A DNA stretch of 64,000 nucleotides. It comes from Spirochaetia bacterium. GTDB lineage: Bacteria; Spirochaetota; Spirochaetia; SZUA-6; Fen-1364. Below are positions 13,556-63,804 of the stretch, piece after piece (position 1 is the first letter of the stretch; each line of letters starts with the position of its first letter). The stretch spans positions 37,504 through 101,503 of the forward strand of contig JBEKQU010000005.1 in assembly GCA_049519415.1 (NCBI GenBank), read 5' to 3'. The position numbers and the translations under genes were made by a program. Under the pieces are notes generated by a model that ran no database searches, was not told the origin of the DNA, and saw nothing but the letters and a program-made list of their open reading frames with translations.

Positions 13556-13562
13556 AGGCGGC

Positions 13563-16602: not shown

Positions 16603-16668
16603 AGGCGGCAACAATAGAAGGCTTCGTGATTTTCTGACTTGCCCGGGGGCGGGGAATCGCAGCAGCCT

Positions 16669-17565: not shown

Positions 17566-17574
17566 GGCATACCT

Positions 17575-18549: not shown

Positions 18550-18656
18550 CAGCGCTTCCGTGTGGGCCGCACTATAAGTCACGCACGGACTAGTGTCAAG
18601 CAATTCCTTGCGCCGGGGCGGGCCCGCGGCTCACGCCGGGGTCATGCGGGGCGCAT

Positions 18657-24688: not shown

Positions 24689-24724
24689 TATATACTCATT
24701 CAGGCAACAATCGAGAGGCTATCG

Positions 24725-38791: not shown

Positions 38792-38854
38792 TTCAATGCC
38801 CCGGGTGCGACCTTCCTGGCCATCCGTGGTACATTGACGGAATCGAGGTGCAAG

Positions 38855-41800: not shown

Positions 41801-43507
41801 CCCCCCCTGGCCCTGGAGATCGACACCACGGCTACTCCGGCGATCGTTTCCACGGACCTCACCGCGTTCTCACCGAACGGCGACGGCGTGAAGGACACCA
41901 TCAAGATCATTCCCTCCCTCAAGGTCACGACGGGGATCGATTCCTGGGAGCTTCGAGTCAAGGATTCCAAGAGCACGGTGATCCGGCGCGTTTCGGGCAC
42001 CAACTCGGCGCCCGGCGAGTTCACCTGGGATGGCCTGGATGACTCGAAGATCAAGGCGCCGGACGGCACCTACACTTCGGAGCTGGAGGTGCTGTACCGA
42101 AACGGCAACCGCCCGATAGCCCGGACCAACCCGTTCGTCATCGACACGCACTATCCGGCGATCACCGTGACGGCGGACACGCTCCTGTTTGCCCCGACTC
42201 CTGACAGCGCGGTCCAGTCCATCACGATCCACCAGGACTCCAGCGTCGAAGATCAGTGGACCGGGCAGATCCAGGACTCCTCCGGAAAGCCGGTCCGCGC
42301 GTTCTCCTGGAAGGGCAAGGCAGCAGACTTATCCTGGGACGGCACGGATGACAACGGCAATATCATGGCCGACGGCGTGTACCAATACGTGGTCACCTCG
42401 ACCACCCTGGCCGGCAGCAAGACCGAGAAGACGCTGACCGGTCTCACAATCGATACCCGTCCCACCCCGATCTCCATCCAGGCCGCCTCGGAGGGGCTGT
42501 CGCCCAACGGCAACGGAATCCGCGATACCATCGGGCTGAACCTGTCGGTGGGGCTCGCCGACGGGATCAAGAGCTGGAAGCTGTCGATGGTGGAGGCTTC
42601 CAAGGGGGTGCAGAAGACGTTCAACGGACTTCCTCCGGTGCCTGCCTCTATTGTCTGGGACGGCAAGACCGATAGGGGAACCGTGGTCGAAGGGACGTAC
42701 ACGGCCCAGTTCGAAGTACGGTACAGCAAGGGCAGCCACCCCACGGCATCCTCGCAGTCCTTCCTGCTCTCCGTGAGTCCCCCGAAGATCGACCTGCAGG
42801 CCGCGCCACTTCCGTTCTCCCCTGATGGAGACGGCTCCAATGATACGATCACCCTTACGCTGAACGTCACCGACCCGTCGCCCGTGGATTCCTGGGATAT
42901 CACGGTGAACGACCCGGAGGGACACTTCTTCTCCGACTTCTCGGGCAAGGGCGCTCCGACTCCGATCACCTGGGACGGAATGTCGTCGAACGGCGAGCTG
43001 GTGCAGGCCGCGTCGGACTACACGATGAAGGTCACGGTCAGGGACGCGCTGGGCAACGTGGGCACGCTCACCCAGACGCTCCCCGTCGACGTGCTGGTAT
43101 TCCGTGAAGGAGACAAGCTGAGAGTCCGCGTGAGCAGCATCATCTTCAAGGCGGATACCGCGGACTACGTGAACGTACCCGCGGACCAGGCCCAGAAGAA
43201 CATGCAGACCCTGGCCCGGCTGGCCCAGATCTTCCAGAAGTACGGCCAGTACAAGATCCGCATCGAGGGCCACGCCGTCATGGTGAACTGGGACAAGCCC
43301 GAGGCAGGGAAGAAGGAGCAGGACGCCGTCCTGATCCCGCTCTCCAAGGCTCGCGCCGAAGCCGTCAAGGCGGCGCTGGTCAAGCTGGGGATTGACGCAA
43401 GCCGAATGACCACCGACGGTCTGGGCGGGGCTGTACCGATCGTGCCCTTCAGCGATCTGGAGAACCGGTGGAAGGACCGACGCGTGGAGTTTATCCTGGT
43501 GCGATAG
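38855..43507 (+). CDS. giant exported OmpA-family protein with Gly-rich N-terminal domain and ~10 FlgD-Ig-like repeats
   Basis: Signal peptide (AAAAVPAFSQ). The repeats are FSP(N/T/D)GDG...WDGKDDxGxxLPDGTYTY...TDxAGN. The C-terminal OmpA-like peptidoglycan-binding domain ends RRVEFILVR. Confidence 0.75.
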   Translation: MKNARVCMGPRYAAACLFALLAAAAVPAFSQNASMDLYDPGTLASLGSGAAAGALGGIPGLPGASVFSLAVSPGASALNPAAAGWLERITIDASYLGLAGLGPSTGWGNLANLGASFPTPYGVITASGRYLGSTFPTLNVGSMGSFNLSFAKDVYRDLSVGAGLGFQIGQDWGLGLDLGFVHAPGDLGFLRNFRWGAAIRGIGKGYNTTSITDGEGTVPPWFTPDIGTSFDLVSTVPFSLSVASDLSFPAFSDVRFALGLGIGILNTVSVQASYAFDLNDTLAGTANSFPFGFGLFATIPIQGAGDMAVTSAGAPLSGGVWGFGLGTTFSLGKIDRSAPAITLASTEDAYISPGTQSADQMLSVPLTITDSRYLKGYRLIIYDSTSKVVRTIETVDQGPTSSGIRNFFDRLFSAKKSIPVPQALTWDGKDDSGQQVPDGTYTYAVEAWDDNGNQARIDPKVIVKTVPPQVSVSAPYLEFSPTGEGTRGSLTIEQSGTSEDLWVGTIYDSSGNEVRQFRWTNEPPQTFTWQGKDTNGKLLPDGTYTYKITSTDRAGNTGTATLEGIVINTQATPIDLTTDLPAFSPGGQSPKQVIHLIPTVKVKDGIDHWSLVVTDLAGSVKRTYTGTTLAPETIAFDGKDNEGTVLPEGMYRATLNVNYRNGHNPTLDSPDFLLRVTPPSATVKAQYLEFSPDGVGTQTKLPLEQNGSTEILWQGSMADSTGNTVRSYQWNESAPKSFSWDGRDDNGKLVPDGAYTYQLTSTDPAGNTGGAEVAGIVVNTVPTPVSLAVDYSAFSPTGNSSKNMLTFSLTAPVSRGMTRWTLAVRDRTGKTRRNFSGTSPLPATQVFDGKDDDGVVLPEGPYSATLAVVYANGHAPSGDSPQFVIDVTQPTATVSSDYAVFSPIGQGTRNLVTFTQSATKDAAWTGVVKDAKGTPVRTASWKGRPDVKFVFDGHGDDGKLLPDGKYTYTLAGIDNAGNIGGAPPLALEIDTTATPAIVSTDLTAFSPNGDGVKDTIKIIPSLKVTTGIDSWELRVKDSKSTVIRRVSGTNSAPGEFTWDGLDDSKIKAPDGTYTSELEVLYRNGNRPIARTNPFVIDTHYPAITVTADTLLFAPTPDSAVQSITIHQDSSVEDQWTGQIQDSSGKPVRAFSWKGKAADLSWDGTDDNGNIMADGVYQYVVTSTTLAGSKTEKTLTGLTIDTRPTPISIQAASEGLSPNGNGIRDTIGLNLSVGLADGIKSWKLSMVEASKGVQKTFNGLPPVPASIVWDGKTDRGTVVEGTYTAQFEVRYSKGSHPTASSQSFLLSVSPPKIDLQAAPLPFSPDGDGSNDTITLTLNVTDPSPVDSWDITVNDPEGHFFSDFSGKGAPTPITWDGMSSNGELVQAASDYTMKVTVRDALGNVGTLTQTLPVDVLVFREGDKLRVRVSSIIFKADTADYVNVPADQAQKNMQTLARLAQIFQKYGQYKIRIEGHAVMVNWDKPEAGKKEQDAVLIPLSKARAEAVKAALVKLGIDASRMTTDGLGGAVPIVPFSDLENRWKDRRVEFILVR
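39935..43060 (+). repeat. diverged tandem array of ~330-bp coding repeats (alternating A/B FlgD-Ig subtypes)
   Basis: Ten protein-level repeats in an A-B-A-B pattern. The DNA is not identical. Confidence 0.65.
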
Positions 43508-47531: not shown

Positions 47532-48576
47532 TCAGCCCAGAAGAGGCGGTCCCCTCCGGTGACGCTCCAGGCAGGCGATGATCTTGCAGATCTGAGTCGG
47601 ATCGACGATGACGGCGAGCACCGCCATTCTGCTTCCGCACCTTGGGCAGGCCATCATGTGCAGCTTGTGAACCTTGGCCGGCAGCCGCGCCCAGGCCTTA
47701 CTGCGCGAGAGCACGCCGAGCTGGCGGTGCAGTGGCCCGCCCTGGGCCTGGTCCTTCGGGGCATCGGGGAGCAGGGGATCTTCGGCCGCCTTCCTGCCGT
47801 AGCAGTTGGCGGGCGCGTGCGATCGGAGGGCAGGCCGGTCCTTCCAAGTTCCGCGACCCCAAGCCTCCCGCCGTTTGCTTCGCAACCGAAATGTCGCCAG
47901 GAGCGACGGCGCTGCCGGCCCAGGGAGGAATACAACCCGTAGCGGCGCACGAGGTGCTTTCCCCGAGGAGGGACGTGGAGGGTCAGCTGGGCGATGAAGC
48001 CCAGCGAGGAGTACCTGCGCTGCCTGCCCTTTTGAAGTACCCCGAGGGGGAGGAGGACCAGGTGACGGCGTCCTGCTGCTCGTCCCAGCGGATGCGCTGC
48101 AGGGAAAGCGGGGCACGCACGATGTACTGACACAGCGCCTCGCGCGGTTCCTGGTCCCAGATGCGAGCACCGCTCTCGATGGAGAACCCGGAGTGCTCCC
48201 GGCCGAGGAGCTTGCGGGCGAAGTCGGGATTCAGAAAGCCCTTCTGGAGGAATAGGGCGACCACGCTGCGGCGCCAGATCTCGGAGAGGCCATCGGTGGC
48301 CCCCAGGGGGATGAAGAAGAATCGGTCGTGGCGGTCGAAGCCGCCTTCCAGGACGATGCAGTGCCAGTGGGGATGCCACACGCCGAACTCGCCGAAGCTC
48401 TGGTGGCTGGAGACCATGGCGCAGCGCAGCGTCCTGCCGGCGGCCTGGCTGTAGACGCCCTGCATCATGCGGTAGACGAGCCTGCTTAACGGATGTAAAC
48501 GAAACGCACGTGACCGCCGAATGCAAGGAGGGAATGCTTTACCTGCATGTGCCAAAGGCAGAAAAGGCCAAGGCAA
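47532..48576 (-). mobile_element. IS91-family (rolling-circle, Y2) transposase relic, frameshifted
   Basis: Three consecutive minus-strand frames carry WHPHWHCIVLEGGF...RIRWDEQQDAVTW, then an Arg-rich bridge, then the C-terminal CPRCGSRMAVLAVIVDPTQICKIIACLERH. The N-terminal roughly 100 aa are absent. Confidence 0.6.
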
Positions 48577-50959: not shown

Positions 50960-51235
50960 GCGGAACGGCTCACGGGTGTTGAGGGTCCTCAGGCCCTCCG
51001 CAAGGCCGGCCAGCCACGTCCCTGGGAAGCATCTTCGTCTCCATGAGCTGGATCCCCGCGATCGGCTGCGTTTTCTCCCTCACCCGCATCGCCTTTGTGG
51101 CTTGACGGTTCGAGGTTCCTATCGCATCCGATGGAAAATACTGACTAAATACGACCCCCGCTTCCGACAAAGGCGAATTCTCTTCGCGGCAGCCGACTAT
51201 CTCCAGCCACGCGGTCACGTCCTTTCGGGCGGACC

Positions 51236-51672
51236 TCACGTTTCGGCCCTGACTGCAAGATCGTCCACGATGATAAACTTCGGGCAGAGATCGCTGATAT
51301 CCCTGACGCTTCGCCACAATCCACTGCCCTCGTGCGTGCAGAAGGGCACGACCTTCATTCCTGAAAGATCGTGATTTTCCAGGAACGCGAATACTGCCAT
51401 CGGCATCGTCGCCCACCAGATAGGACAGCCGATAGAGATGACCATGTACGATACAAGGTCCGTGACGTCCTCCGCCAGCCGCGGCCGGACGTTTGCCCTC
51501 AGTTCCGTCCTCGCAACCTCGACCGCGGCATCGTAATCCTGTGGGTACGAGTCTACGGTCTCGATCCGAAAGAGGTCGCCGCCCGTGACAGCACGGATGT
51601 GCTCGGCGATAACCCTGGTGTTGCCGGAATGCGTGAAGTAACCAACGAGTGTGGACTCCTTCGCTATCCGCT
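51236..51672 (-). pseudogene. flavodoxin-family (Flavodoxin_4-like) gene lacking a canonical start codon
   Basis: The in-frame translation (ESTLVGYFTHSGNTRVIAEHI...VVPFCTHEGSGLWRS) is flavodoxin-like. There is no ATG/GTG/TTG between the upstream stop and the internal Met at 51445. Confidence 0.5.
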
Positions 51673-51710
51673 TTGTTTTCCCTCAGTTCCCTTGACGACC
51701 GGGCCACTGT

Positions 51711-52034
51711 TCAACGACCGGTCAGCCCATTCATCTGCGGCCGGCCGTTGTCGTCATAGTTGAAGCCGAACTTGGTGGCGATGACGACCCGGCCTCGGAA
51801 CGGCTGCAGGACTTCGCCCACCAGCTCTTCGTTGACGAATGGGCCATAGAGCTCCGCGGTGTCGAAAAGCGTCACGCCGCGATCCACTGCGGACCAGATC
51901 AGGGAGATCATCTCCTGCTTTTGCGCGGGCTGATCATGGCCCGGGATCAGGCCCATGCAGCCAAGGCATATGGCGCCACTTCCCATACTTCCAAGGTAAA
52001 AACCAGATCTGACATACCACGAGAAAGCAGCCAA
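51711..52034 (-). pseudogene. aldo/keto reductase N-terminal fragment
   Basis: GCMGL...AVDRGVTLFDTAELYGPFVNEELVGEVL...VVIATKFG is an AKR N-terminus that terminates after about 107 aa. Confidence 0.5.
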
Positions 52035-53168: not shown

Positions 53169-54407
53169 TCACTGTTCAAAATGAGTCTCATTTTTCGCAG
53201 CGTCGTCTTTGGGAAGTAGGCAATGGCTGCCTTGTCGAAGTGACCGCTGCCCTGACTTTAAGCGGAAGGATTTGTTGCGCACATCGATCCGCCGGCCACG
53301 CCACATAGCGCTGCCGCGGACCTTCGCCAGCCAAACAGAATGCGCGAAGATCGTATGGAAGAACGCAAGCGGCAGGGGGAAGAAAAGCGCAGTAAGAGGT
53401 CCAAAGCCCCCAATTCTTCGGAACATCCACCAGAGCTGGGCGGCGTACAGCGCATAGAGGCCGATTGCAGCTTTGCCGAACGCCACACGAGCCCCGCCTT
53501 CGGTCAGAGAAACGATTCCCAGGCAGCCGGTGATGACGCTCGTGGTGGCGCCCGTGAGCCACGCGCCCATCAGCGCCCGCGGCAGCGGCGGTGAGTACCC
53601 CGCCCCGGTTGCAATGTTTTTGTTCCAGCCCTCGACCATGCTTCGGATGCCGTCGGGATACATGCGGAAGTGCACAGCGCTCCGGCCGCCGAGGCACGCA
53701 ACGGGCAGGCCACGGTGGCGGGCCACTTCTCCAAGGGCGAAGTCCTCAACCACCTGGTCGCGCACTGTGGCGTGGCCGCCGCAGGAGAAGTAATCGTCCC
53801 GAGCCACGGCGATACAGGGGCCAAAGGTGCCGGCCGCGCGAAGCCGGTCGCCCAGAGGAGTAAAGGCGCCGAGGCTGCCCATCATCACGACATTGCAGAA
53901 AGCGGACAACCGTTCATATGCCCGGGGCACCTCATGGTATGGCTGCACGGACACCAGACCACCCATCTCCGCATGCGCGGCCAGCAGGCGCGCTATGGCT
54001 CCATCCTCCAGACGAACGTCGGCATCCAGGAATACCAGCAGGTCGCCCGTCGCCTCCCGCGCGCCGGTCCAGCAGGCCCAGGTCTTGCCGACCCAGCCCT
54101 CGGGCCTTGCCGGGGCCGAGATGACCCGTGCTCCGAGCCTGCGGGCCAGGGCTGCGGTGCCGTCCGTGGAGTCGTCATCCACCACGAGAATCTCGTCGGC
54201 GCGCCGGCTCTGCCGTGCCAGCGACTCCATCAGCGGAGTGAGACGCCGCTCTTCGTCACGGGCAGGAACGATCACCGAGACTCGGCGCGACTGGCACATG
54301 GTATTGATGCGCACGGCCGGACACCGCGGCACCCGCCAGAGGCAGAATATCCCCGGCAGCCATAACGCGCCGGTGTACGCAAGCAGTGCAATCTCGAGCG
54401 CGGTCAT
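53169..54407 (-). CDS. crtQ: family-2 glycosyltransferase, CrtQ-like (diaponeurosporenoate glycosyltransferase family)
   Basis: VSVIVPARDEE...DDDSTDGT...DAD...SVQPYH matches the CrtQ pattern. C-terminal TM segments. Confidence 0.7.
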   Translation of the reverse strand: MTALEIALLAYTGALWLPGIFCLWRVPRCPAVRINTMCQSRRVSVIVPARDEERRLTPLMESLARQSRRADEILVVDDDSTDGTAALARRLGARVISAPARPEGWVGKTWACWTGAREATGDLLVFLDADVRLEDGAIARLLAAHAEMGGLVSVQPYHEVPRAYERLSAFCNVVMMGSLGAFTPLGDRLRAAGTFGPCIAVARDDYFSCGGHATVRDQVVEDFALGEVARHRGLPVACLGGRSAVHFRMYPDGIRSMVEGWNKNIATGAGYSPPLPRALMGAWLTGATTSVITGCLGIVSLTEGGARVAFGKAAIGLYALYAAQLWWMFRRIGGFGPLTALFFPLPLAFFHTIFAHSVWLAKVRGSAMWRGRRIDVRNKSFRLKSGQRSLRQGSHCLLPKDDAAKNETHFEQ

Positions 54408-55504
54408 CGCGTCCTCTCATAGCGGAATGTCAGCACCGTGAGGAGAAGAAAGCCGCCGAAAAAGGCCGCCAGGGCACCAAGGTCCGTGCTCATTTCAAGC
54501 GGCCCCCGACCGAGCACCATAGAAGAGAAGACAGCGCGAGAAAAGTACAGCACTGGATTGACGACCGCAAGATCGACGAATGGAGGGGGAATGAGCTCCA
54601 CTGGCACGAACAGCCCCGAGGTGAACAGGAACAGCATGGCGAGAATCTGCGCAACCGCGACAGCCGCTTCCACCGTGGACAGCACCCCCGCGAGAAAGAA
54701 ACCTGCCGCGGCAAAGGCCGCAGTGCCCAGAAGGAAGACGGGCAGGAATGATAGGGGCGCGGCGGCGAAGCGCAGGCCAAAAACCAGCGCCCCGGTTGCC
54801 GCGAGCAGTCCGATCTGCACGAGACCGATCACAACGCGCTGCAGCACGAGACCCAGCGTGAAATGCACCCGCCGCAGGGGCGTACAGGCGAAGCGCTTCA
54901 GGAATCCTTGCCGCCGGTATCCGATGATGATCTGAGGAATGGCGAAAAAGCAGTTCAGCATCACCGAAAGGCCGAGGGTTCCGGCAAAGAGAAAGTAGAG
55001 GTACGTGAGCCGACGGCCGCCGACCGCCAGCACCTCCAGACGGTAGTCAAAGAGCGACGGACCAGCGATGAATCGCCGCACAGCCTCCACGCTCGCCTGA
55101 TCAAGGACCGAGGAGAGCACCATGCCGAAAGGCTTGTCCTTTTCCGTAACCAGGACTGTATACGCTCCCTCGCCCGTAGCGCGAGTGACAAATGCGTACA
55201 GCTTGCCCTCGGCGAGCAGCCGGCGGCCCGAGGCTTCGTCCATCCAGGCGATCTGAATGATGGAGCTCGCTTCCAGCGCGTGACGCATGACTCCCGCGGA
55301 GGTCTCGTTGGAGAATTCCAAGGCTTGTTCAATGCCGACGCGGAAGGAGCGGGGACGGAACTCGCTCTCGCCGAACAGAAAACCGAAAAGCACGAACAGG
55401 AACGCCGGAAAAAGCAGCATCCAGAACAGCCCCGCCGGCGAGCGGGCCTCCTCCAGCAGCAGTGACCCCGTCATCTTCCCGACGACCCGCCACCCGCCCG
55501 CCAT
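54404..55504 (-). CDS. ABC-2 family transporter permease
   Basis: N-terminal periplasmic segment followed by 6 TM segments. Directly downstream of an ABC ATPase on the same strand. Confidence 0.7.
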   Translation of the reverse strand: MAGGWRVVGKMTGSLLLEEARSPAGLFWMLLFPAFLFVLFGFLFGESEFRPRSFRVGIEQALEFSNETSAGVMRHALEASSIIQIAWMDEASGRRLLAEGKLYAFVTRATGEGAYTVLVTEKDKPFGMVLSSVLDQASVEAVRRFIAGPSLFDYRLEVLAVGGRRLTYLYFLFAGTLGLSVMLNCFFAIPQIIIGYRRQGFLKRFACTPLRRVHFTLGLVLQRVVIGLVQIGLLAATGALVFGLRFAAAPLSFLPVFLLGTAAFAAAGFFLAGVLSTVEAAVAVAQILAMLFLFTSGLFVPVELIPPPFVDLAVVNPVLYFSRAVFSSMVLGRGPLEMSTDLGALAAFFGGFLLLTVLTFRYERTR

Positions 55505-56451
55505 CAGCGCGCCTCCGTCGCGGGCTCTTCGCTGGGCCACGCGCGACCCGTGCGAAAAAGGTACACGTCTTCGAGGGTCGGTGCGTGCACATCAAGCTCG
55601 CGCACCGATGTGCCGGCAGCCCGGGCAATCTCGAAGATCTGGTGGAGGTCGTCCTCGAACCGGACGCTTGCCACGCGCGCGCTGGCCCCGCTGACCACGG
55701 CGTTCGGAAATGTTGCCGCGATCCTTTCCGTCAAGCCGGGTGGCTCGGCTTCGAAGGTGAAAATGATCAGACCGGCAAGGCCTGAGGCCCCCACCAAGGC
55801 GGCAGGCGAGTCAAGAGCGGCGATCGTTCCCCGGTAGAGGATGGCCACCCGATCGGACAAACGCTCCGCTTCCTCCAGGTAGTGGGTGGTGAGCACCACC
55901 GTCTTGCCCCGGGCGCGCAGGTCCTGAATGATGCCCCACACCTCCCGGCGCACGGCAGGGTCAAGACCCGTGGTCGGCTCGTCGAGGAACACGAGATCGG
56001 GGTCGTTGACGATCGCCAGGGCAACGAGAAGGCGCTTGCGCTGCCCGCCGGACAGTTCGCGCACCAGCGCACGGCGGGGCGGGTCCAGGGATACACGGTC
56101 GAGCGCCTCCCGAGGTTCCAGGCCCCGGGAGTAGAATGATCTGAAGAGGGCAAGCACCTCCATGGGCCTAAGGTTCTGCATTACCTCGGCCTCCTGAAGC
56201 TGCACGCCGATTGATTCGCGCACGCGCAGGTCGCTCGGTCGGCCGCCCAGCACCCGAAAGGTGCCGCCATCGTGCCTCCGGATTCCTTCAAGAATCTCCA
56301 TGATTGTCGTCTTTCCGGACCCATTGGGTCCGACGATCGTGAAGATCTCCCCCCGGGGGACCGTGAAACTCACACCGCGCAGCGCCGGCAGGCCCTTGTA
56401 GGACTTCCGAAGGTCGTGTACCTCAAGGGCGAAGCTGTTCGAGCTATCCAT
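55504..56451 (-). CDS. ABC transporter ATP-binding protein
   Basis: Walker A GPNGSGKTT, ABC signature LSGGQRKR, Walker B LVFLDEPTTGLD and H-loop TTHYLEE. Confidence 0.85.
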   Translation of the reverse strand: MDSSNSFALEVHDLRKSYKGLPALRGVSFTVPRGEIFTIVGPNGSGKTTIMEILEGIRRHDGGTFRVLGGRPSDLRVRESIGVQLQEAEVMQNLRPMEVLALFRSFYSRGLEPREALDRVSLDPPRRALVRELSGGQRKRLLVALAIVNDPDLVFLDEPTTGLDPAVRREVWGIIQDLRARGKTVVLTTHYLEEAERLSDRVAILYRGTIAALDSPAALVGASGLAGLIIFTFEAEPPGLTERIAATFPNAVVSGASARVASVRFEDDLHQIFEIARAAGTSVRELDVHAPTLEDVYLFRTGRAWPSEEPATEAR

Positions 56452-56520: not shown

Positions 56521-58401
56521 TTGCGAATGCAGCGCGGCGACTATGACGTCATCGTCGTTGGAGCGGGGGTCGGCGGCCTGACTGCGGCGAGCCTGCTTGC
56601 GAAAAGCGGCCTTGCCGTCCTGGTTGTCGACAGGAACTACATGCCCGGCGGCGCCCTCGGCTCCTTTCGGCGCGACGGGATAACTCACGACCTGGGCGCA
56701 GCCATGCTCTTCGGCTTTGGAGAGCACGGGTTCAGCCCGCACCGGTTCCTCATGAACGAGTTGGAGGAGCCGGTGACCGTGATCCGTCACCGTGCCCTGT
56801 ACCGGCTCAACTACGGCGAGGACCCCATTGTGTTCTGGCCGGAGATGGATCGCTACCTCGGCGAGCTTGCCCGGGTCTTTCCAGCCGAACGGGCCGAGCT
56901 GGCCGCTTTCTATCAAGCAATTGCCGAGCTTTTCGAGAACGTCATCCGGGCCGACCCCGTGTACGTGTCTCCCTCGGAGATGCGGCCTCAGGATCTTCGC
57001 GGGCAGTTCTTCTCCCGGCCGCTGCAGCAGCTGGCCACCCTCCGGTTGCTCTCCACCTCTGCGGAGCGCCTTATCCGCCGGCACGTACGTTCCGAGCGGG
57101 CGATCAGGTTCTTCGACAAGCTTACCTCAACCTACTGCTACACCACCATGGCCGAGACGCCGGCAATACTTGCGGCAACGATGTTCGTCGACAATCACGC
57201 CGGCGGCAGCTATTATCCCGTCGGGTCGCCTGCCATCCTGGCGGGCAGGCTCGAGCGCTCAATCGAGCGCCACGGCGGGACCTTCCGCTATGAGACTGAA
57301 GTGACAGGCATACTCTTCGACGACGGCGGCCGGGTCAGGGGCGTATACACCGCAGGCGGAGAGGAAATCACTGCCCCCCAGGTCGTGTATGCGGGGGCGA
57401 TCCATCCACTCTTCCGTAAGCTGCTGCCTGCGGCGCGCGTGAGGGCCCGGGAGCGCGCCCGGATCGAATCGCTGGTCCTGACGCACCCCAGCATCGTGCT
57501 CTACGGTCAAGTGAAAGCGGACGCCGTGCCCAACGGCACCTTTCCTGTGGAGATGTTCGTAGACAACAAGACGACCCTCGATGAGAGCGAGGTCACGCTG
57601 TACCTGTCGTCGCTGGAGGAGCCGAACCTTGCCCCCGAGGGCACATACGTCTTTACGCTTATTGGCCCCTCGTTCTCCAACTGGCCCGCCCCGGGCGACA
57701 CCGCCTACCAGGGTCCGGCCTACCTCGAGCGCAAAGAGGCCGAGGCCCGGCGGATGCTCGCCATTCTCGAGCGTCGTATGCCGGGGTTTTCCAGAGGGAT
57801 CGTGCGCTGGGAGATCGGAACCCCTTCCACTATTGAGCGCTACCTCGGCAAGCCGGGAGGCACAGTGGCTGGGCCCAAGCAGGCAATCGGACAGGAGCTG
57901 CTGCGCCGTCCCCATGCCAGGACCCGGTGGCCGGGGCTGTACCTTGCAGGAGAATCGACGGTGATGGGCACGGGCACGCCGGCGGTGACTGTCTCAGGCA
58001 TCAGCGCTGCCGATGTTGCGCTGCGCGACCGGGGAATGCCGGAATACCGGTGGCGCCCGGGGCAACGCGATTTTGTCACCGTGGTTGAAGGACCGGTGCC
58101 ACGCCTGCCTGCGCCAAAAACGGCACCGGGCACCGCCTCATTCTGCGGGTGGTGCGAGATCGCAACGTGCCGGGCTGCGTGCCCCTCCCGCATCGATATC
58201 CGAGGCGTGCTCCGGCGCATCGAAATGGAGAACTTCGAAGGTGCTCGGCGCAGGCTCGCTGAAACAGGTGGCAGGCCGCTGCCCTGTCCCGGCTGTGCGG
58301 GACACCCATGCGAGCAGGCCTGCCAGCGCACCAGGTGGGCAGGAAATCCGGTTCCCATCGTGGAAAACCTTGTCTGGGCGGACAGGCAGACTCCACCGTG
58401 A
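56521..58401 (+). CDS. phytoene-desaturase-family FAD oxidoreductase (CrtI/CrtN/CrtP-like) with Cys-rich C-terminal extension
   Basis: N-terminal YDVIVVGAGVGGLTAA FAD site and a CrtI-family body. The C-terminal roughly 100 aa carry CxxCx4Cx3CP and CPGCx3PCx3C motifs. Confidence 0.75.
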   Translation: MRMQRGDYDVIVVGAGVGGLTAASLLAKSGLAVLVVDRNYMPGGALGSFRRDGITHDLGAAMLFGFGEHGFSPHRFLMNELEEPVTVIRHRALYRLNYGEDPIVFWPEMDRYLGELARVFPAERAELAAFYQAIAELFENVIRADPVYVSPSEMRPQDLRGQFFSRPLQQLATLRLLSTSAERLIRRHVRSERAIRFFDKLTSTYCYTTMAETPAILAATMFVDNHAGGSYYPVGSPAILAGRLERSIERHGGTFRYETEVTGILFDDGGRVRGVYTAGGEEITAPQVVYAGAIHPLFRKLLPAARVRARERARIESLVLTHPSIVLYGQVKADAVPNGTFPVEMFVDNKTTLDESEVTLYLSSLEEPNLAPEGTYVFTLIGPSFSNWPAPGDTAYQGPAYLERKEAEARRMLAILERRMPGFSRGIVRWEIGTPSTIERYLGKPGGTVAGPKQAIGQELLRRPHARTRWPGLYLAGESTVMGTGTPAVTVSGISAADVALRDRGMPEYRWRPGQRDFVTVVEGPVPRLPAPKTAPGTASFCGWCEIATCRAACPSRIDIRGVLRRIEMENFEGARRRLAETGGRPLPCPGCAGHPCEQACQRTRWAGNPVPIVENLVWADRQTPP

Positions 58402-58883
58402 CCACCGCTCAATTCCCCGTCGGCTGGAACATCCTGCTTAACGCTGGAGCCTGGTTTGTGATACACGTCGGAGCCTCATTCTTCACGAGCCGGCTTCCCC
58501 TGGACTCGTTTGATACAGCGGGCTGGCTCTACCGTACTAGGAGCTGGGAGCTCGGCGGCAGGCTCTATGAACGGGTCTTCTTCATCCGTGGATGGAAATG
58601 GATGCTGCCGGACGGTGCGGCGGCTTTCCGATCAGGGTTTCGCAAACGGCATATGACCGGGCGTTCACCGGAGTACTGTCGGACCTTTGCGAGGGAGACC
58701 TGCCGGGCGGAACTCTCTCACTGGCTCGTATTCATGCTCGTGCCGCTGTTCTTTCTCTGGGATCCATGGTGGGTGGCCTGGCCGATGGTGCCCTACGCAG
58801 TTGCAGTGAACGCTCCCTGCATCATGGCACAGCGATACAATCGGCCACGCCTCGCTGCGCTGGCTGCGCGCGGCGCTATCTGA
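58399..58883 (+). CDS. crtO: glycosyl-4,4'-diaponeurosporenoate acyltransferase
   Basis: Strong match to CrtO conserved blocks: FIRGWKWMLPDG, RAELSHW and QRYNRPRL. GTG start overlapping the upstream stop. Confidence 0.8.
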
Positions 58884-58930
58884 AAAAGAGAGTTACCCTC
58901 CATGTACCGTTGTAAACGGGGGAAGAAGAC

Positions 58931-59458
58931 ATGAAGTCCTGGATTGCATCGGTGGGAATCTTGGCTATGGCCGCTCACGCCATGGGTCAAGGCGACGCGC
59001 TCCCAATTTTCCCGAAATCGTTGGGAAAGAACCTGAATGGCCGCGCACTGTCACTGCCGGACGATTTCGCAGGCCGTGCGAACCTCGTATTCATCGCCTT
59101 CGAGATGCGCCAACAACAGGAAGTCGACACCTGTAAGTCATTCACACAGGGGATGCGTCAGGCCCATGAATGGCTGCACGCCTATGAGCTTCCCACGATC
59201 GGCAGAGGCTACGGCCTCATACGCGGTTTCATCGACGGCGGGATGAGATCCGGCATTCCGGACAGCGAGACCCGGGCGTCCACTATTACCCTCTATCTCG
59301 ACGTCGATGCGTTTGCACGCGCGCTCGGAATCGAATCCACCGGTACCATCACCATCCTGCTGGTGAAATCCTCGGGAGAGATCATGGCCCATGCTTCCGG
59401 ACCCTATTCCAAGACAGCGGCAGCTCCACTGATCTCCGCGCTGGATGCCATGAAATGA
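58931..59458 (+). CDS. secreted hypothetical protein
   Basis: Signal peptide (ILAMAAHAMGQG). No catalytic motif. Confidence 0.45.
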   Translation: MKSWIASVGILAMAAHAMGQGDALPIFPKSLGKNLNGRALSLPDDFAGRANLVFIAFEMRQQQEVDTCKSFTQGMRQAHEWLHAYELPTIGRGYGLIRGFIDGGMRSGIPDSETRASTITLYLDVDAFARALGIESTGTITILLVKSSGEIMAHASGPYSKTAAAPLISALDAMK

Positions 59459-59556
59459 AGCATTGCAGAGGCAGTAATGGATTCATCCGCTCAGCCACCT
59501 TGGCACTTCCACCGGAGCGTCGCCCACTAACGTAGACGTGCAGCCGCCGGTATCTC

Positions 59557-60650
59557 TCAGCGCAAGTCCTTGATCACTTTATCGGCGGCCAGTTTGCCCG
59601 TCAGAATCGAGACTGGCAGACCAGAGGGACTGAATGACCACTGCCCTGCCTGGCAGACGTCGGGTATCGGCGTAAGGATCGACTTCGCGACCGAAGGAAG
59701 GTCGGAAATCGCCGGCAGGGGCTTGTTTGTCAAGGCCCAACTGGTGATTGCGCCGTCGGAATTGCCTGTTCTCTCTTCCAGCGTAAGGGGGCCCGAAGTG
59801 AAAGCGTCGATGGTCGATCCCCTGGGTCCGGGGAAAATGGTGGAGCCCAGCACCTCGATGATGCAGTTGCTGCACAGCTGCTGGTACTCCTCGTGCCAAC
59901 CCATCTCCCGGATATGCCTGTGGAGCGAATGCTCCATCAGCGTGCTGATGGCAAAACCCGTTTTCCCCGGGGGGCCAAGGCGGGATCATGCAAGGCCGGG
60001 CAGGAGATTTCATAGCTCGTAAGCTCGAAGAACCGCCTCGTCCAGGCTAGATGAGCCGGGCCTTGTCCTGTGTGTACCCGCCCTTCGCGGGATCGTCGCC
60101 GGTGAGCTCGCGAAGGTCAAGGGCTGACAGCCCAATTGTGTAAGTCGTGCAGAAAAGATGCGCGGTGGCTCTTTCCGAGAAGCAGCTTTTGTCGATGTCC
60201 AGCGCAAGGTACAGTGTGAAAACCGAGTCTCCTCCCCTTTTGTCGAGAAGCGCAGCCTGCCTCTCTTCCGCGCTCCTCCGCACCTTCCCGTTCGGAATCG
60301 ATCCTGCATCGAGGATGCGGTAGAACGTCTTCTGGTCCGCTGCCCAGACGAGCTTCCGCCAGGAGCACTCCCGGCCACGCGCGTCGAGATGCGTCCGTCT
60401 TCCCGGGGCGACGCCGACGATGCCGCCCCTCGGGTAGCGGTAGTCGAGATAGAGGCCGAAATAGCTTAACGCAAAATGGGCCGGGGTCTTCTTGAAGAAA
60501 TGCTGGTCGATGATGTCGATCAGCGCCTGACTGCCGGATAGTTTCGCAAGGTGCTCGTCGACGGGGAGAAGCAGCTTGCGGACCTTCGGCATGGTGAGGA
60601 TGTAGCGCAGCAGCCATGGCAGCATCGTCCTGATGATATCGTGGGGATCC
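59557..60650 (-). pseudogene. second phytoene-desaturase-family oxidoreductase, frameshifted and N-terminally truncated
   Basis: The C-terminal CrtI-like part is split between two frames (59557-59937 and 60047-60650). No FAD-binding N-terminus. Confidence 0.5.
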
Positions 60651-60758
60651 TTCCTGGGCTCTAGGAAGAGCGGATTGTCGATCCCATAGAATACATCCAT
60701 GTAGCCGATGACCCGGCGCACCTCGTCGATCTGTCGTCCAGAGCTATCGAGGGACTGG

Positions 60759-61412
60759 TTACCTCGTCCGCCGCGTGAGGAGCAGGGAACGCAGCGCCGC
60801 CACCGCGATACCGACGACGACGACCGCAGCGGCGACCACGGCAACGGTCCATACCTTGGGTGCAACGCCAAACCGGTTCCACCCAGCTTTCACGAGCAGC
60901 GCCGTCACGTTGGCGATCATGGCGACGGTGATCCATCCCAGGTAAACGCTGAAGGGAATGCGGGCGAACCACCTCTCTGCGGGACTCGCAGAAGCCCTTC
61001 CCATGCCCAGCCGAAGGTAGATGCCGATGAGGCAGGTGAGCAGGGCGAGCATGGCAAGGAGGGAGAAGCCGACCTGCCGCCAGTGCCAGAGTAGCAGCCA
61101 TCCGATGTTCGCCGCGGAGGAGAGGACCATCAGCCACCCGATCCTCTCCACGGACGCCGGCGCTTCCCTCCGGGTGGAAAACAACCCTCGCGACTGGGCC
61201 ACGGTGAAAAGAAGCAGGAAGATGTAGATCACCCCCCAGATGGAGAAAGTAAGGCCTGATGGAACGAAAAGATTTGGAATGGCATCTGAGAGAACTCCGG
61301 TCTGGCTGCCGTTGAGCCCGATGGTTGAGGCGAAGGTGTTCACGACGAGAGTGGCCAGGAAGACCACGATGTTGACGGCCTGCAGGACTCGCGCCGATTG
61401 CCTGGTCTCCAT
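60759..61412 (-). CDS. tspO: TspO/MBR (CrtK-like) tryptophan-rich membrane protein
   Basis: LNGSQTGVLSDAIPNLFVPSGLTFSIWGVIYIFLL matches the TspO signature. Five TM segments. Confidence 0.65.
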   Translation of the reverse strand: METRQSARVLQAVNIVVFLATLVVNTFASTIGLNGSQTGVLSDAIPNLFVPSGLTFSIWGVIYIFLLLFTVAQSRGLFSTRREAPASVERIGWLMVLSSAANIGWLLLWHWRQVGFSLLAMLALLTCLIGIYLRLGMGRASASPAERWFARIPFSVYLGWITVAMIANVTALLVKAGWNRFGVAPKVWTVAVVAAAVVVVGIAVAALRSLLLTRRTR

Positions 61413-61548: not shown

Positions 61549-62616
61549 ATGGCACACGCGCTACGAAAGCTCACCCACCCACTCCTCTTTCAGGGCAGCA
61601 CAGCGAAAAAGCGATATTTCGAAGGGTGGTACTTTAAACAGGTGTCGGCGGATGGCAGATCTGTTTTTGCGCTCATACCCGGAATCTCCCTGTCCCCACG
61701 GGGTTCGCATTCGTTCGTGCAGGTGATCGACGGAACCACGGGTGCCACACGCTGGTTCTCCTACCCGCTCGACGCGTTTCGCTGGTCACGGAACCGGTTC
61801 GAGATCCAGGTGGGCGAGAACCGGTTCAGCGATACGTCGGCGGATGTCCAGCTCACTGACGGTGCAGGTTCGATCGAGGCCCACCTGCGCTACCATGGCC
61901 TGACCCCCCTGCCGTTTTCCCTTGGAAGTCCCGGCGTCATGGGGCGCTACACGTATGCGCCCTTTATGGAATGCTACCATGCAATTGGCAGCCTGGATCA
62001 CCGGGTTGAGGGCAGCGTCACGGTTGACGGAAGCAGGTTCGACTTCTCGGATGGTCGTGGATATATCGAGAAAGACTGGGGGACTTCTTTTCCTCGCGCC
62101 TGGATCTGGGCGCAGTCAAACAGCTTCGAAGAGCCGGGCACGTCGTTCGTGTTCTCACTTGCGCGAATCCCATGGCTCGGGCGTTTCTTTCCGGGATTCT
62201 TCTCCCTGCTTCTCGAGCGAGGACGGCTTCATCGAATGGCAACGTACACAGGGGCGCGCATCGTGGCAGCGCGGTTGAGCGGACGGGAGCTGGCGCTGGA
62301 CATCAGCGACCGCGAATCGGTCATCTTGCTGAGGGCAGAGCGCTCACACGAAGGAGTGCTCCTGGCACCAGAGCAGGGAGCCATGGATCGACGCATTGGG
62401 GAGAGCATCGACGCGCGCCTGCATGTCACCATGACAGACCTATCCGGGAAGGTGCTCTTCAACGGGTCGGGATCGGCGGCAGGCTTGGAGGTCGTCGGGG
62501 ACATGTCTATACTCGGAGTGCTGACAGAGGGCGCTCTCAATTCGCAGGCGCAGAATCCGGACTCTGCTCCCACCTCGGGCATGCCAGGCAAGACAAGCGA
62601 GCCGCCGTTTCCATGA
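61549..62616 (+). CDS. tocopherol-cyclase-family protein
   Basis: RYFEGWYFKQV motif and 'IEKDWG...WIWAQSN' resemble the VTE1/SXD1 cyclase family. Confidence 0.6.
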   Translation: MAHALRKLTHPLLFQGSTAKKRYFEGWYFKQVSADGRSVFALIPGISLSPRGSHSFVQVIDGTTGATRWFSYPLDAFRWSRNRFEIQVGENRFSDTSADVQLTDGAGSIEAHLRYHGLTPLPFSLGSPGVMGRYTYAPFMECYHAIGSLDHRVEGSVTVDGSRFDFSDGRGYIEKDWGTSFPRAWIWAQSNSFEEPGTSFVFSLARIPWLGRFFPGFFSLLLERGRLHRMATYTGARIVAARLSGRELALDISDRESVILLRAERSHEGVLLAPEQGAMDRRIGESIDARLHVTMTDLSGKVLFNGSGSAAGLEVVGDMSILGVLTEGALNSQAQNPDSAPTSGMPGKTSEPPFP

Positions 62617-63172
62617 GAACGGATATCTGGAAGCGGGTACCGACGGCCGAACATTCGAACGCTGATGCACTTGCACTTCTAGGCGTGGGACACTAGATTT
62701 TCAATATGAATGCCATATACGAATTTAAAGGCTAGCCGCAGCAGTTGCGACCTCATAGCGCGCGATGGTGTTGGGACGGCGGTGGGGTGCCCCTACTGGA
62801 GTGGCAATTGCGCGGAGTTGTTTTCCGCTGGCCGTTGTGGTTGAATAATGGACAAGGGCACGAAAACCTTGGTGGTCATCAATCTCTGCCTGGCGTTCTA
62901 CAACGTCGGAACAATATGAGCGAACGAGGTCGACATCTTCCGCTCGTGGAAGCTCCTCGACAACGTTACGTTCCATAAGGTGCACGCGGTCCACTGGCAC
63001 AAGATCCCGTTCTGGATCTTCATCCCCTACGGACTATTCTTCGCTCTCTCGACTCTCTTGATTTGGTGCCACCCGGCGGGCTCGCCGACATGGGCCATCT
63101 GTCGTGCTCGTTAACGCTTCCGCCGGCTTCCATCCGGATCCATGTGGGGCCTACGAGGGGCACGATCGGAGA

Positions 63173-63804
63173 ATGGAGGATTCCATGGAAACTGTCGAGC
63201 TCCCTAAACCAAGGTTTGGCCGAGGCCGCACCACCCAGTCGGTCTTTCTGAAGCGAAGAACGGTCCGCGAAATCGGCAACAAGAAGCTCTCTCTGCAGAT
63301 GTTGTCGAATCTTCTGTGGTCCGCCTGCGGGGTAAACCGGAAGCAAGTTCCCTTCGGCCTTCCGGGAATAGCGGCTGCTTCGGCCAGCAATTCGCAGGAA
63401 ATCGATCTCTATGTTGCCTTGGAGTCTGGCGTCTACTTCTCCGAGAGGGCGGATCATCGTCTGGCGCTGGTGGCTGGGGGGATTTTCGCTTGTTCGCGCT
63501 CGGACAGGCTCAGGGGAAGACTGGGTCAAAGGCTCCCGTACGCCTGATCTACGTCGTGGACATCGACAAATTCAGCAAGACCTGCTATCAGGAGCCGGGG
63601 CTGAAGACCCCCGAGACGCAGAAGGCTTATTACTATGTGGATACAGGCTTGATCGCGGGAAATATTTATCTTTTCGCGGCTTCGCACGGCCTAGCGGCAT
63701 GGTTTCACAACTGTAACAAGGCGGAGCTTTCGAAAATCCTGAAACTCAGGTCCGATCAGCATGTGCTCTTCGGTCAGACCGTCGGCTATCAAGAAAAGAA
63801 CTAG
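63173..63804 (+). pseudogene. nitroreductase-family protein with apparent frameshift near 63470-63530
   Basis: The N-terminal part (63173-63460) and the C-terminal part (63540-63804; YYYVDTGLIAGNIYLFAASHGLAA) are in different frames. Confidence 0.5.

Follow-up and report, generated by a model that had tools for sequence, protein, structure and literature searches.

A tocopherol-cyclase-family protein of an anaerobic spirochaete and its recurrent proximity to CrtI-superfamily flavoproteins in related loci

The 64-kb stretch of spirochaete DNA analysed here, referred to as the window, carries at positions 61549..62616 of the forward strand a real and intact gene with an ATG start for a protein of 355 aa, which belongs to the prokaryotic 'MECYH' branch of the tocopherol-cyclase (TC) family (PF14249). 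The best explanation as a whole, to which we assign a probability of about 0.5, is that this gene encodes a functional, cofactor-independent enzyme that would protonate an isoprenoid C=C bond, with addition of an oxygen nucleophile. The protein is not an enzyme of the tocopherol pathway; a carotenoid substrate is possible. In a sub-clade of Spirochaetota, the gene is recurrently found in proximity to genes for CrtI-superfamily flavoproteins, a context that has not been reported before.

An intact and conserved member of the tocopherol-cyclase family

Purifying selection acts on the TC gene, with dN/dS values of 0.19 in comparison to the sister genome (locus L004) and of 0.06-0.07 in comparison to loci L001 and L005. 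In a full-length alignment with 64 homologues, the protein retains every invariant column. Among these 65 sequences approximately 50 columns are invariant, many of them charged or polar, and the invariant polar set comprises E25, H144, H151, E174-K175-D176, N191, R281, E285 and E314. The N-terminal motif YFEGWYFKQV (residues 23-32; 61615..61644, on the forward strand like all motifs of the gene) contains the invariant positions Y23, E25, G26, Y28 and K30. It is followed by the motif MECYH (residues 140-144; 61966..61980), which is typical of the prokaryotic branch and includes the invariant H144, and by the core motifs GYIEKDWG (residues 171-178) and FPRAWIWAQSNSF (residues 181-193) at 62059..62127, in which W177 and G178 are invariant in addition to E174, K175, D176 and N191. 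The C-terminal tail (residues ~331-355; 62539..62613) is poorly conserved: the alignment of homologues stops at about residue 330, the tail is missing in most of them, and confident disorder is limited to residues 342-355 (pLDDT <50). Promoter and terminator scans of the regions flanking the gene returned nothing exceeding the shuffled background.

An earlier note on this DNA had read YFEGWYFKQV and the blocks downstream of it as signatures of the VTE1/SXD1 family and had proposed a search with the Pfam Tocopherol_cycl profile as a check. This search yields a match to PF14249 with an E-value of 4.9e-17 and 62.4 bits (gathering cut-off 26.6), in which residues 132-317 align with profile positions 147-335 of 335; since the profile match exists, the family assignment is correct. 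The N-terminal motif is visible by eye, though it lies outside the aligned stretch, and the region that follows it differs in length from VTE1. None of the NCBIfam models matches the 355-aa protein. In a direct comparison, it shares 25% identity over 179 aa with Arabidopsis VTE1 (E 2e-11; hhalign probability 97.5%), the VTE1 query being a sequence rebuilt from S2 Fig of PMC4963081. The motifs YxEKNWG and FP+xWxW+QxNxF have been proposed for the catalytic region of tocopherol cyclases (PMC4963081), and the window protein presents YFEGWYF (23-29), YIEKDWG (172-178, with N replaced by D) and the block at residues 181-193. Sequence comparison thus places the protein in the tocopherol-cyclase family far beyond chance.

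The family was described in the earlier note as otherwise known from cyanobacteria and plants, which is wrong. Among the candidates scored, more than 4,000 homologues were obtained at E<=1e-3. Grouping at 50% identity gives 2,115 clusters that span bacteria and archaea, with hosts in Spirochaetota, Bacteroidales, Clostridia, Chloroflexi, Thermoplasmatota, Methanobacterium and Asgard MAGs; most clusters come from anaerobic Bacteroidales, Spirochaetota, Clostridia, Chloroflexi and archaea. All 120 homologues among the matches listed carry PF14249, and 'tocopherol cyclase family protein' is already in use as their NCBI name. Tocopherol cyclase-like proteins of heterotrophic bacteria were described in 2016, when they served as an outgroup (PMC4963081). 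This description of their existence is all that literature searches on the function of the prokaryotic branch retrieved, and the searches found no activity, substrate or product for any of its members.

Relation to characterised enzymes and predicted fold

The characterised members of the family are VTE1/SXD1 of plants and slr1737 of Synechocystis (EC 5.5.1.24), with which the window protein has PF14249 in common. The C-terminal half aligns with VTE1, and the motifs FFEGWYF, YxEK(N/D)WG and FPxxWxWxQxNxF are shared, the N-terminal counterpart in VTE1 being FFEGWYFRV. By analogy, the same type of chemistry would be expected, namely protonation of a prenyl C=C bond and capture by oxygen. However, the core of the window protein comprises only ~325 residues in comparison to ~400 in mature VTE1, a VTE1 segment of ~150 residues between the N-terminal motif and the core is missing, and MECYH takes the place of FEPHW. 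Here, the host represents a further difference: it is an anaerobic spirochaete and not an oxygenic phototroph, and no tocopherol-pathway genes are seen nearby. Neither HPPD nor homogentisate phytyltransferase nor the methyltransferases were detected among the window genes scanned or within 10 kb of the TC gene in 14 other annotated loci. Because the identity of 25% is confined to the C-terminal half and the protein falls into a separate prokaryotic branch with ~325 aa and MECYH, it does not appear to be an ortholog of VTE1 or slr1737. Instead, it is a member of the heterotroph 'tocopherol cyclase-like' group (PMC4963081), with which it shares length and invariant residues; its identity to the copies of Bacteroidales, Clostridia, Anaerolineae and Thermoplasmatota amounts to 41-49%. 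It does not differ fundamentally from the rest of this group, apart from the frequent location of the Spirochaetota sub-clade near CrtI-superfamily genes.

An AlphaFold (AF2) model of the 355-aa protein (pLDDT 92.5) confidently predicts a double beta-barrel of the AttH/CrtC type, common to AttH, kievitone hydratase and CrtC. Among solved structures, those of AttH, kievitone hydratase (CrtC domain), fungal decalin Diels-Alderases and a 25-phosphosteroid lyase come nearest to the model; no solved tocopherol-cyclase structure was found by sequence or fold search. Despite the fold, identity to the AttH/CrtC-type hydratases (carotenoid 1,2-hydratase CrtC, kievitone hydratase 7a0q, AttH NE1406 2ich and the archaeal OH-GDGT synthase Hgs) is only 10-12%, and the PF07143 (AttH/CrtC) profile gives no match at E<=0.01. 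The same range of 10-12% applies to the decalin Diels-Alderases CghA, Fsa2 and Phm7 (6kbc, 7e5t, 7e5u, 7dmo), which act on polyketide-amino acid hybrids within PKS-NRPS clusters. The 25-phosphosteroid lyase of anaerobic sterol degradation (9fzn) reaches 14% identity; its chemistry is the elimination of phosphate, and steroid-degradation genes are not present at the window. With Diels-Alderases and a phosphate lyase among the top structural matches, the predicted fold does not dictate hydration or cyclisation. An acid-base reaction on a terpenoid fits the model.

Carotenoid-type genes in the window

The earlier note had placed the TC gene beside crt genes. Crt-type genes do lie 2.7-8 kb upstream in the window, but crtB, crtI and crtY are absent among the larger ORFs scanned across its 64 kb, and the 'carotenoid cluster' is partial. 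It consists of a CrtO-family acyltransferase, a family-2 glycosyltransferase (GT2), a divergent flavoprotein, a TspO-like gene and a decayed flavoprotein, and core crt genes (crtB/M, crtI/N, cyclase) are not adjacent in the window. The nearest crt-type gene encodes the acyltransferase (58398..58883, forward strand), which belongs to the glycosyl-4,4'-diaponeurosporenoate acyltransferase family (PF18927, 108.7 bits, E 3e-31) and ends 2.7 kb upstream of the TC gene. Its ORF opens at 58308, and the likely start is a GTG at 58398 that overlaps the stop of the upstream gene. This upstream gene (56521..58401, forward strand) codes for a 626-aa fusion of a CrtI/CrtISO/CrtD-like FAD oxidoreductase with a C-terminal 4Fe-4S dicluster domain (Pfam Amino_oxidase and Fer4_20). 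Its NCBIfam scores of 253.6 bits for carot_isom and 128 bits for crtI_fam are both under the cut-offs. Further upstream and on the reverse strand, an ABC transporter ATPase (55504..56451, with a likely start at MDSSNSF at 56451) was recognised through tblastn matches to ABC_tran-annotated genes in other loci, followed by an ABC-2 type transporter permease (54404..55540; PF12698, PF01061) and the GT2 (53169..54407; PF00535). The GT2 shows weak similarity to HpnB (97 bits) and CruG (81 bits), in both cases far under the cut-offs, and over ~100 aa it shares 47-52% identity with the GT2 encoded in the crt cluster of L005. The window also carries GH10, arabinose isomerase and sugar ABC transporter genes.

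The divergent neighbour of the TC gene (60759..61412, reverse strand) encodes a TspO/MBR-like membrane protein that is C-terminally truncated (217 aa in comparison to the usual 265 aa) and identical to one NCBI Spirochaetia MAG protein. It has no Pfam match; translocator protein and tryptophan-rich sensory protein are the names given to its homologues, the distant ones carry PF03073, and the gene is also found in L004 and L001. Between the TspO-like gene and the acyltransferase lies an apparent frameshifted remnant of a CrtI-superfamily flavoprotein without N-terminus (59572..60736, reverse strand; blastx/tblastn). Its ORF fragments (59557-60871) gain no Pfam support as CrtI-like even at E<=5; the homology came via blastx to a flavoprotein encoded immediately upstream of the TC gene in locus L088 (35% identity over 235 aa and 37% over 144 aa, E 9e-65). 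The region of the remnant is missing from the sister genome L004. Split ORFs are also present in the window at 50970-52034 and 63104-63804; like the remnant, they may be true pseudogenes or may reflect long-read indel errors. Because an opposite-strand gene intervenes, the TC gene and the crt-type genes of the window do not form an operon.

Genomic context of homologous loci

All-against-all clustering of six-frame ORFs from 84 loci revealed no conserved neighbour of the TC gene; the only recurrent clusters are generic ABC ATPases and those that reflect synteny inside Bacteroidales. Nevertheless, 8 of the 92 loci have a CrtI-superfamily flavoprotein gene or a full crt cluster no more than 10 kb away from the TC gene. 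These eight are Spirochaetota MAGs or contigs with 58-76% identical TC proteins, and they display at least four arrangements. Orthologs of the 626-aa flavoprotein occur near the TC gene in L004 (88%), L086 (77%) and L006, the latter two in a layout that differs from that of the window and L004. In L088, an SDR, a flavoprotein and the TC gene form an operon-like arrangement in which one junction is a 4-nt overlap and the other a gap of 42 nt, and in L068 another flavoprotein is located nearby. In L005 and L001, bona fide CrtI, CrtD::CruF, GT2, CrtY and CrtB are encoded just downstream of the TC ortholog. Relatives at 54-67% identity sit in unrelated contexts, and crt genes are missing from 9 of the 16 closest loci and from all of the ~70 non-spirochaete loci. 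At the level of the family the carotenoid link is thus weak, yet given the eight loci it is not empty. Many of the hosts, among them Methanobacterium, Peptostreptococcaceae and anaerobic Bacteroidales, have no known carotenoid production; carotenoids can therefore not be the general substrate of the family.

Proposed reaction and alternative explanations

The preferred explanation envisages a cytoplasmic or membrane-peripheral enzyme of the prokaryotic tocopherol-cyclase branch with no obvious cofactor. A trisubstituted C=C bond of an isoprenoid chain would be protonated to a tertiary carbocation, which would then be captured by an oxygen nucleophile; water would give a tertiary alcohol, and a nearby hydroxyl group a cyclic ether or chromanol-type ring. 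For protonation and oxygen capture we infer by analogy from VTE1, CrtC, kievitone hydratase and the archaeal OH-GDGT synthase. VTE1 makes the chromanol ring from prenylquinols (PMC4963081), and in AttH-like enzymes such as CrtC, kievitone hydratase and Hgs the reaction is the hydration of an isoprene double bond to a tertiary alcohol (bioRxiv 10.1101/2025.10.20.683597). On the catalytic residues of VTE1, literature searches retrieved the proposed motif and an engineering study, and no mechanistic mutagenesis was found. In the spirochaete clade, the recurrent proximity of CrtI-superfamily genes suggests, as the weakest step of the explanation, that the enzyme may act on a carotenoid or a comparable polyisoprenoid, at a double bond set up by a CrtI-superfamily flavoenzyme. 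Such a pairing would have analogues among desaturase/hydratase pairs, namely CrtD/CrtC, the CrtD::CruF fusion and Ted/Hgs. Counting against the preferred explanation are the lack of a conserved neighbour across 84 loci, the canonical cyclase and hydratase already encoded in L005, the missing operon link to crt-type genes in the window and the decay of one linked flavoprotein gene there. Extended to its full form, this idea is doubtful: the Spirochaetota enzyme might work as partner of CrtI-superfamily flavoenzymes, among them the flavoprotein/Fe-S fusion and the flavoprotein of the SDR-flavoprotein-TC operon in L088, by adding oxygen or closing a ring, and the two together might make a carotenoid or polyisoprenoid that is hydroxylated or carries a cyclic ether (chromanol-like), with no need for O2.

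The alternative that survives best, although we consider it doubtful, is a dedicated carotenoid-modifying enzyme of a spirochaetal carotenoid glycoside(-ester) pathway, which would serve as 1,2-hydratase, end-group cyclase or cyclic-ether former together with a CrtI-like flavoprotein, a GT2 and a CrtO-type acyltransferase. The crt-type genes of the window, the crt clusters of L005 and L001 and the fold shared with the carotenoid hydratase family CrtC are in its favour, as is the finding that neither CruF nor CrtC is seen in the window or L004. The divergent TspO-like gene also fits, TspO being the CrtK of the Rhodobacter crt cluster. Against it, the flavoprotein and the GT2 of the window score under every curated carotenoid threshold, the core crt genes are missing there, and an operon link to the TC gene is lacking; in addition, most of the closest loci and all distant ones lack crt genes. 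Because in L005 a lycopene cyclase (CrtY-type) and a CruF hydratase domain already adjoin the TC copy, a specifically carotenoid-cyclising role is not supported, and a reading of the protein as the missing 1,2-hydratase or cyclase is weakened. The terpenoid or carotenoid cyclisation proposed in the earlier note therefore stands only in its broader part, a terpenoid acid-base reaction being compatible with the fold.

Rather unlikely is a housekeeping or stress-related role in which the enzyme would modify a membrane isoprenoid other than a carotenoid (a polyprenol, a quinol or a chain of archaeal type), for example to yield a hydroxylated or chromanol-like lipid that acts as an antioxidant. It would account for a very broad spread over bacteria and archaea that have only general isoprenoid lipids in common. 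Additionally, the TC gene is followed immediately by a gene for glutathione peroxidase in L004 (after a gap of 10 nt) and in L005, and in the Rikenellaceae locus L079 the two genes are 0.7 kb apart. Nitroreductase genes are located nearby in the window and L001, and products of VTE1 are lipid antioxidants (PMC4963081). However, the linkage to glutathione peroxidase is restricted to 3 of 92 loci, and prenyltransferase or quinone-synthesis genes are adjacent in none of the loci examined. To our knowledge, isoprenoid quinones are absent from several of the host groups (Clostridia, many spirochaetes, methanogens), which also counts against this alternative.

A catabolic or detoxifying enzyme for exogenous plant-derived prenylated or terpenoid compounds is improbable. 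The fungal kievitone hydratase performs such a reaction on a prenylated isoflavonoid, and in L085, L086 and L087 the TC gene forms part of a conserved block together with abhydrolase, aldo-keto reductase, rhamnose isomerase and AttH-like protein genes, an alpha-L-rhamnosidase being located nearby; the hosts are sediment or gut anaerobes with many glycan-degrading genes, as the GH10, arabinose isomerase and sugar ABC transporter genes of the window illustrate. The block is, however, limited to one sub-lineage, no signal peptide was found in the 355-aa protein, a link to a regulator or transporter is missing in the window, and the strong cross-phylum conservation argues for an endogenous substrate.

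Finally, a function other than alkene protonation, as a lipid-binding or transfer barrel or in the manner of the pericyclases and lyases that share the fold, is highly improbable: the TC gene stands divergently beside a LolCDE-like ABC/FtsX/TP_0789 set in L002, L003 and L084, with MMPL/MacAB transporters nearby in L002 and L003, but the many charged or polar invariant columns would suggest catalysis, by sequence the protein belongs with VTE1, whose cyclase activity is proven, and identity to the Diels-Alderases is low. A Diels-Alderase as the main explanation was rejected because in none of the loci are PKS/NRPS genes found near the TC gene.

Implications

For the tocopherol-cyclase family a single activity has been characterised, in oxygenic phototrophs, and most of its diversity is found in anaerobic bacteria and archaea that are unable to make tocopherols, as was noticed in 2016. 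The window and its spirochaete relatives provide the first recurrent genomic partner for a protein of the prokaryotic branch, namely CrtI-superfamily flavoproteins in several layouts. This proximity is a testable clue and not proof of a role in pigment synthesis; should the link prove spurious, what is left is a further member of an uncharacterised, already catalogued family. If, on the other hand, the partner reading is true, it would give a first function to the prokaryotic branch (~2,000 clusters at 50% identity) and add a third, independent type of carotenoid/isoprenoid hydratase or cyclase beside CrtC and CruF. A real link would also offer a new cofactor-free hydratase/cyclase for terpenoid biocatalysis and would account for some of the pigments or lipids that free-living spirochaetes make.

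Family assignment and conservation of the protein

The open reading frame at 61549-62616 (+) encodes a protein of 355 aa (TC; N-terminus MAHALRKLTHPLLFQGSTAKKRYFEGWYFKQV) that the earlier note had placed in the tocopherol cyclase family, a placement borne out by a profile match, homology to the Arabidopsis tocopherol cyclase VTE1 and shared motifs. A Pfam search returned Tocopherol_cycl (PF14249; E 4.9e-17) at 62.4 bits, above the gathering threshold of 26.6 bits, with residues 132-317 aligned to profile positions 147-335 of 335, while no NCBIfam model matched the protein. For the comparison with VTE1, residues 73-465 of this enzyme were reconstructed from S2 Fig of PMC4963081, which gives them in BLAST panels. 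The rebuilt sequence shares 25% identity with TC over 179 aa (BLASTP, E 2e-11), and hhalign with a 65-sequence profile yields a probability of 97.5%. The motifs YxEKNWG and FP+xWxW+QxNxF, put forward for tocopherol cyclases (PMC4963081), have the counterparts YIEKDWG and FPRAWIWAQSNSF in TC, and FFEGWYFRV of VTE1 corresponds to YFEGWYFKQV. Sequence and fold searches found no solved tocopherol cyclase structure; an AlphaFold2 model using the 65-sequence alignment as input is nearly all beta (mean pLDDT 92.5, pTM 0.88). We assign a probability of about 0.95 to the family and fold assignment. TC thus adds a member to a family that is known and catalogued but functionally uncharacterised, and it is not an enzyme of the tocopherol pathway.

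Several observations show an intact gene that evolves under purifying selection. Its start is consistent with that of its homologues, the protein retains 48 of 48 invariant and 32 of 32 near-invariant columns of the 65-sequence alignment, and only the last ~25 residues are unconserved, with residues 342-355 modelled as disordered by AlphaFold2. The window belongs to a MAG lineage of the Spirochaetota/Spirochaetia; in its sister genome MFD01476.bin.2.126 (locus L004), the TC protein is 93% identical and the flanking DNA 80-87% identical. Nei-Gojobori estimates of dN/dS are 0.19 for this pair and 0.06-0.07 against loci L001 and L005, two comparisons with saturated synonymous sites.

Distribution of the family

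The family had been described as otherwise known from cyanobacteria and plants, which is incorrect, as thousands of homologues occur in diverse bacteria and archaea. A search of a 5.8-billion-protein set identified 4,129 TC homologues among 8,000 candidates scored, and PF14249 was present in all 120 homologues listed; several already bear the name 'tocopherol cyclase family protein' (NCBI) or 'tocopherol cyclase' (JGI). When 1.84 billion representatives were searched exhaustively with phmmer, 2,115 clusters at 50% identity matched with E<=1e-3 and 608 with E<=1e-30. Scanning one genome per GTDB species recovered at least 594 loci, of which the best 80 belong to Spirochaetota, many anaerobic Bacteroidales, Clostridia, Anaerolineae/Chloroflexia, Ignavibacteria, Fibrobacterota, Actinomycetota, Thermoplasmatota, Methanobacterium and Promethearchaeota. 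Tocopherol cyclase-like proteins of heterotrophic bacteria were reported in 2016 with their function left open (PMC4963081), and a search of the later literature found no functional assignment for them.

Genomic neighbourhood

Upstream of TC, a generic GT2 glycosyltransferase (53169-54407, -), an ABC-2 permease (54404-55540, -) and an ABC ATPase (55504-56451, -) are followed by two divergently oriented genes, which encode a 626-aa CrtI/CrtISO/CrtD-like FAD oxidoreductase with a C-terminal Fer4_20 (4Fe-4S dicluster) domain (56521-58401, +) and a CrtO-family acyltransferase (~58398-58883, +; PF18927, 108.7 bits). Among these five, only the acyltransferase exceeds a curated carotenoid-specific threshold; the flavoprotein remains below the cut-offs of carot_isom (253.6 vs 586.9 bits) and crtI_fam (128 vs 238). 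The Fe-S domain of the flavoprotein suggests that it exchanges electrons with partners of the ferredoxin type, which would make it an oxygen-independent desaturase, saturase or isomerase.

The 1.9-kb segment after the acyltransferase gene (58875-60825 in full) is missing in L004. It includes a 175-aa open reading frame (58931-59458, +) whose N-terminus (MKSWIASVGILAMAAHAMG) resembles a signal peptide and which matches no family, as well as the frameshifted remnant of a second CrtI-superfamily flavoprotein (59572-60736, -). This remnant is homologous to the flavoprotein encoded at 8376-9959 of locus L088 (E 9e-65), has lost its N-terminus (first ~119 residues) and shows a frame break near 60003-60104. 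The divergent neighbour of TC, separated from it by 136 bp on the opposite strand, encodes a TspO/MBR-like membrane protein of 217 aa (60759-61412, -) that is unrecognised by Pfam and NCBIfam and identical to a protein of an NCBI 'Spirochaetia bacterium' MAG. It has more than 2,500 homologues, mostly of the usual 265 aa, in spirochaete-like metagenome contigs. The flavoprotein remnant abuts this shortened TspO-like gene, and one deletion or rearrangement that joined them would account for the truncation of each. The TspO-like gene fits a pigment-related neighbourhood, since TspO is known as crtK in the carotenoid cluster of Rhodobacter.

In a Pfam survey of the larger open reading frames across the rest of the window, crtB, crtI, crtY, CruF and CrtC were not found; the genes recognised include regulators, transporters, genes for sugar utilisation, a RACo-type activase and a glycyl-radical enzyme. 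The label 'carotenoid cluster' is therefore overstated, and the crt-type genes upstream do not share a transcription unit with TC. The activase (RACo-type, corrinoid) and the glycyl-radical enzyme (PFL-like) are hallmarks of an anaerobe. Further features are a surface protein of 1,557 aa that combines six FlgD-Ig repeats with CHU_C and OmpA domains, and an open reading frame with weak similarity to Y2 transposases (these four jointly at 13563-15428 (-), 24647-27112 (+), 38834-43507 (+) and 47654-48526 (-)). Two genes, for an aldo-keto reductase (50970-52034, -) and a nitroreductase (63104-63804, +), are each broken into two overlapping frames and represent either true pseudogenes or long-read indel errors; the closest MAGs, which bear MFD isolate names, we assume to be long-read assemblies. 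In either case, apparent pseudogenes in the window call for caution.

Recurrent association with CrtI-superfamily flavoproteins

For comparison, 91 loci besides the window were gathered. All-against-all clustering of open reading frames from 84 loci revealed no conserved partner family of TC apart from generic ABC ATPases and synteny local to the Bacteroidales, and tblastn with the window neighbours and the L005 crt proteins as queries detected crt-type genes in none of ~70 non-spirochaete loci.

CrtI-superfamily genes nevertheless recur beside TC in several distinct layouts. Related spirochaete genomes retain the 626-aa flavoprotein/Fe-S fusion at 77-88% identity: L004 shares the window's layout (orthologue at 6678-8546), L086 carries it 3 kb downstream of TC on the opposite strand (77% identity, 11341-13224, -), and L006 repeats the latter layout at a contig end (match 4421-4546). 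Of the contexts found for the family, that of L088 (7411-10957) most resembles an operon: an SDR gene, a gene for a 527-aa CrtI-superfamily flavoprotein and TC are co-directional, with a 4-nt overlap and then a 42-nt gap. Next to this unit lie genes for an AraC regulator and for a glycyl-radical enzyme and its activase. In L005, the order TC-GPx-(DOMON-like)-CrtI-CrtD::CruF-GT2-CrtY-CrtB places a TC orthologue beside a complete carotenoid cluster (11118-19599, from GPx on), including lycopene cyclase and phytoene synthase. Here, CrtI and CrtD exceed the crtI_fam threshold, and the CrtD::CruF fusion combines desaturase and 1',2'-hydratase in one 705-aa protein. Synthesis of a 1'-hydroxytorulene glycoside, a type of pigment that has been described in Spirochaeta aurantia, would be expected to need this set of genes. 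The same CrtI lies 0.45 kb downstream of TC in L001, and another CrtI-superfamily gene follows TC by 170 nt in the more distant Spirochaetia locus L068 (44% identity). On the crude assumptions of 4-10 flavoprotein genes per ~3.5 Mb genome and about a dozen independent lineages, 0.3-0.7 chance adjacencies are expected vs at least four arrangements observed, an estimate from which relatedness is not fully removed. We read the association as real but lineage-restricted.

Possible functions

An archaeal AttH-like OH-GDGT synthase hydrates double bonds produced by a partner desaturase (2025 preprint, bioRxiv 10.1101/2025.10.20.683597), and VTE1 carries out the intramolecular version of this reaction, in which a phenolic oxygen serves as nucleophile. 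Given the chemistry of such enzymes, TC would protonate a trisubstituted isoprenoid C=C, which water or a hydroxyl would then capture; by analogy, the odds that TC catalyses alkene protonation with oxygen addition appear about even. The many polar residues invariant in the 65-sequence alignment (E25, H144, H151, E174, K175, D176, N191, R281, E285 and E314) would suit a catalytic role better than passive lipid binding.

The interpretation in the earlier note, a terpenoid or carotenoid cyclisation role, is partly right as to the family and the general terpenoid chemistry; the distribution assumed was wrong and the cluster overstated. Across the family, a carotenoid is implausible as the substrate, as many of the hosts are not known to produce carotenoids and have no crt genes close to TC. 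For the spirochaete clade, action on a carotenoid or a similar polyisoprenoid is plausible, a carotenoid-type substrate being rated as rather unlikely. Here, TC may add the oxygen after a partner flavoprotein has created or shifted a double bond, a pairing with precedents in CrtD with CrtC, the CrtD::CruF fusion of L005 and the archaeal desaturase Ted with the OH-GDGT synthase Hgs (bioRxiv 10.1101/2025.10.20.683597).

Contexts differ among the 16 closest loci (54-93% identity), and some hint at other roles, each a weaker lead. A glutathione peroxidase gene directly after TC in L004 (11042-11533, 10-nt gap) and L005 (11118-11609), and another 0.7 kb from TC in the unrelated Rikenellaceae MAG L079 (3037-3501), hint at a role in oxidative stress; this gene is missing in the window. 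In L085, L086 and L087 (TC at 10001 or 7239), abhydrolase-AKR-DUF2807 lies on one strand and TC-RhaA-AttH-like on the other, and this conserved rhamnose/AKR/abhydrolase block hints at catabolism of plant compounds, as by kievitone hydratase. The AttH-like protein has 384-386 aa and shares the double-barrel fold of TC, the two being encoded two genes apart; an alpha-L-rhamnosidase lies near the L085 block. Transporter neighbours in L002, L003 and L084 (a LolCDE-like ABC/FtsX/TP_0789 set) hint at lipid handling, and unrelated genes surround TC in the P0037 contig, L089, L090 and L091. That TC is simply a missing hydratase or cyclase of the carotenoid pathway is argued against by the CruF domain and lycopene cyclase already present in L005, the decay of one of the window's linked flavoproteins and the 9 of 16 close loci without any CrtI-superfamily neighbour.

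The most useful outcome is a shortlist of co-located flavoproteins for co-expression, chiefly that of the L088 operon and the flavoprotein/Fe-S fusion.
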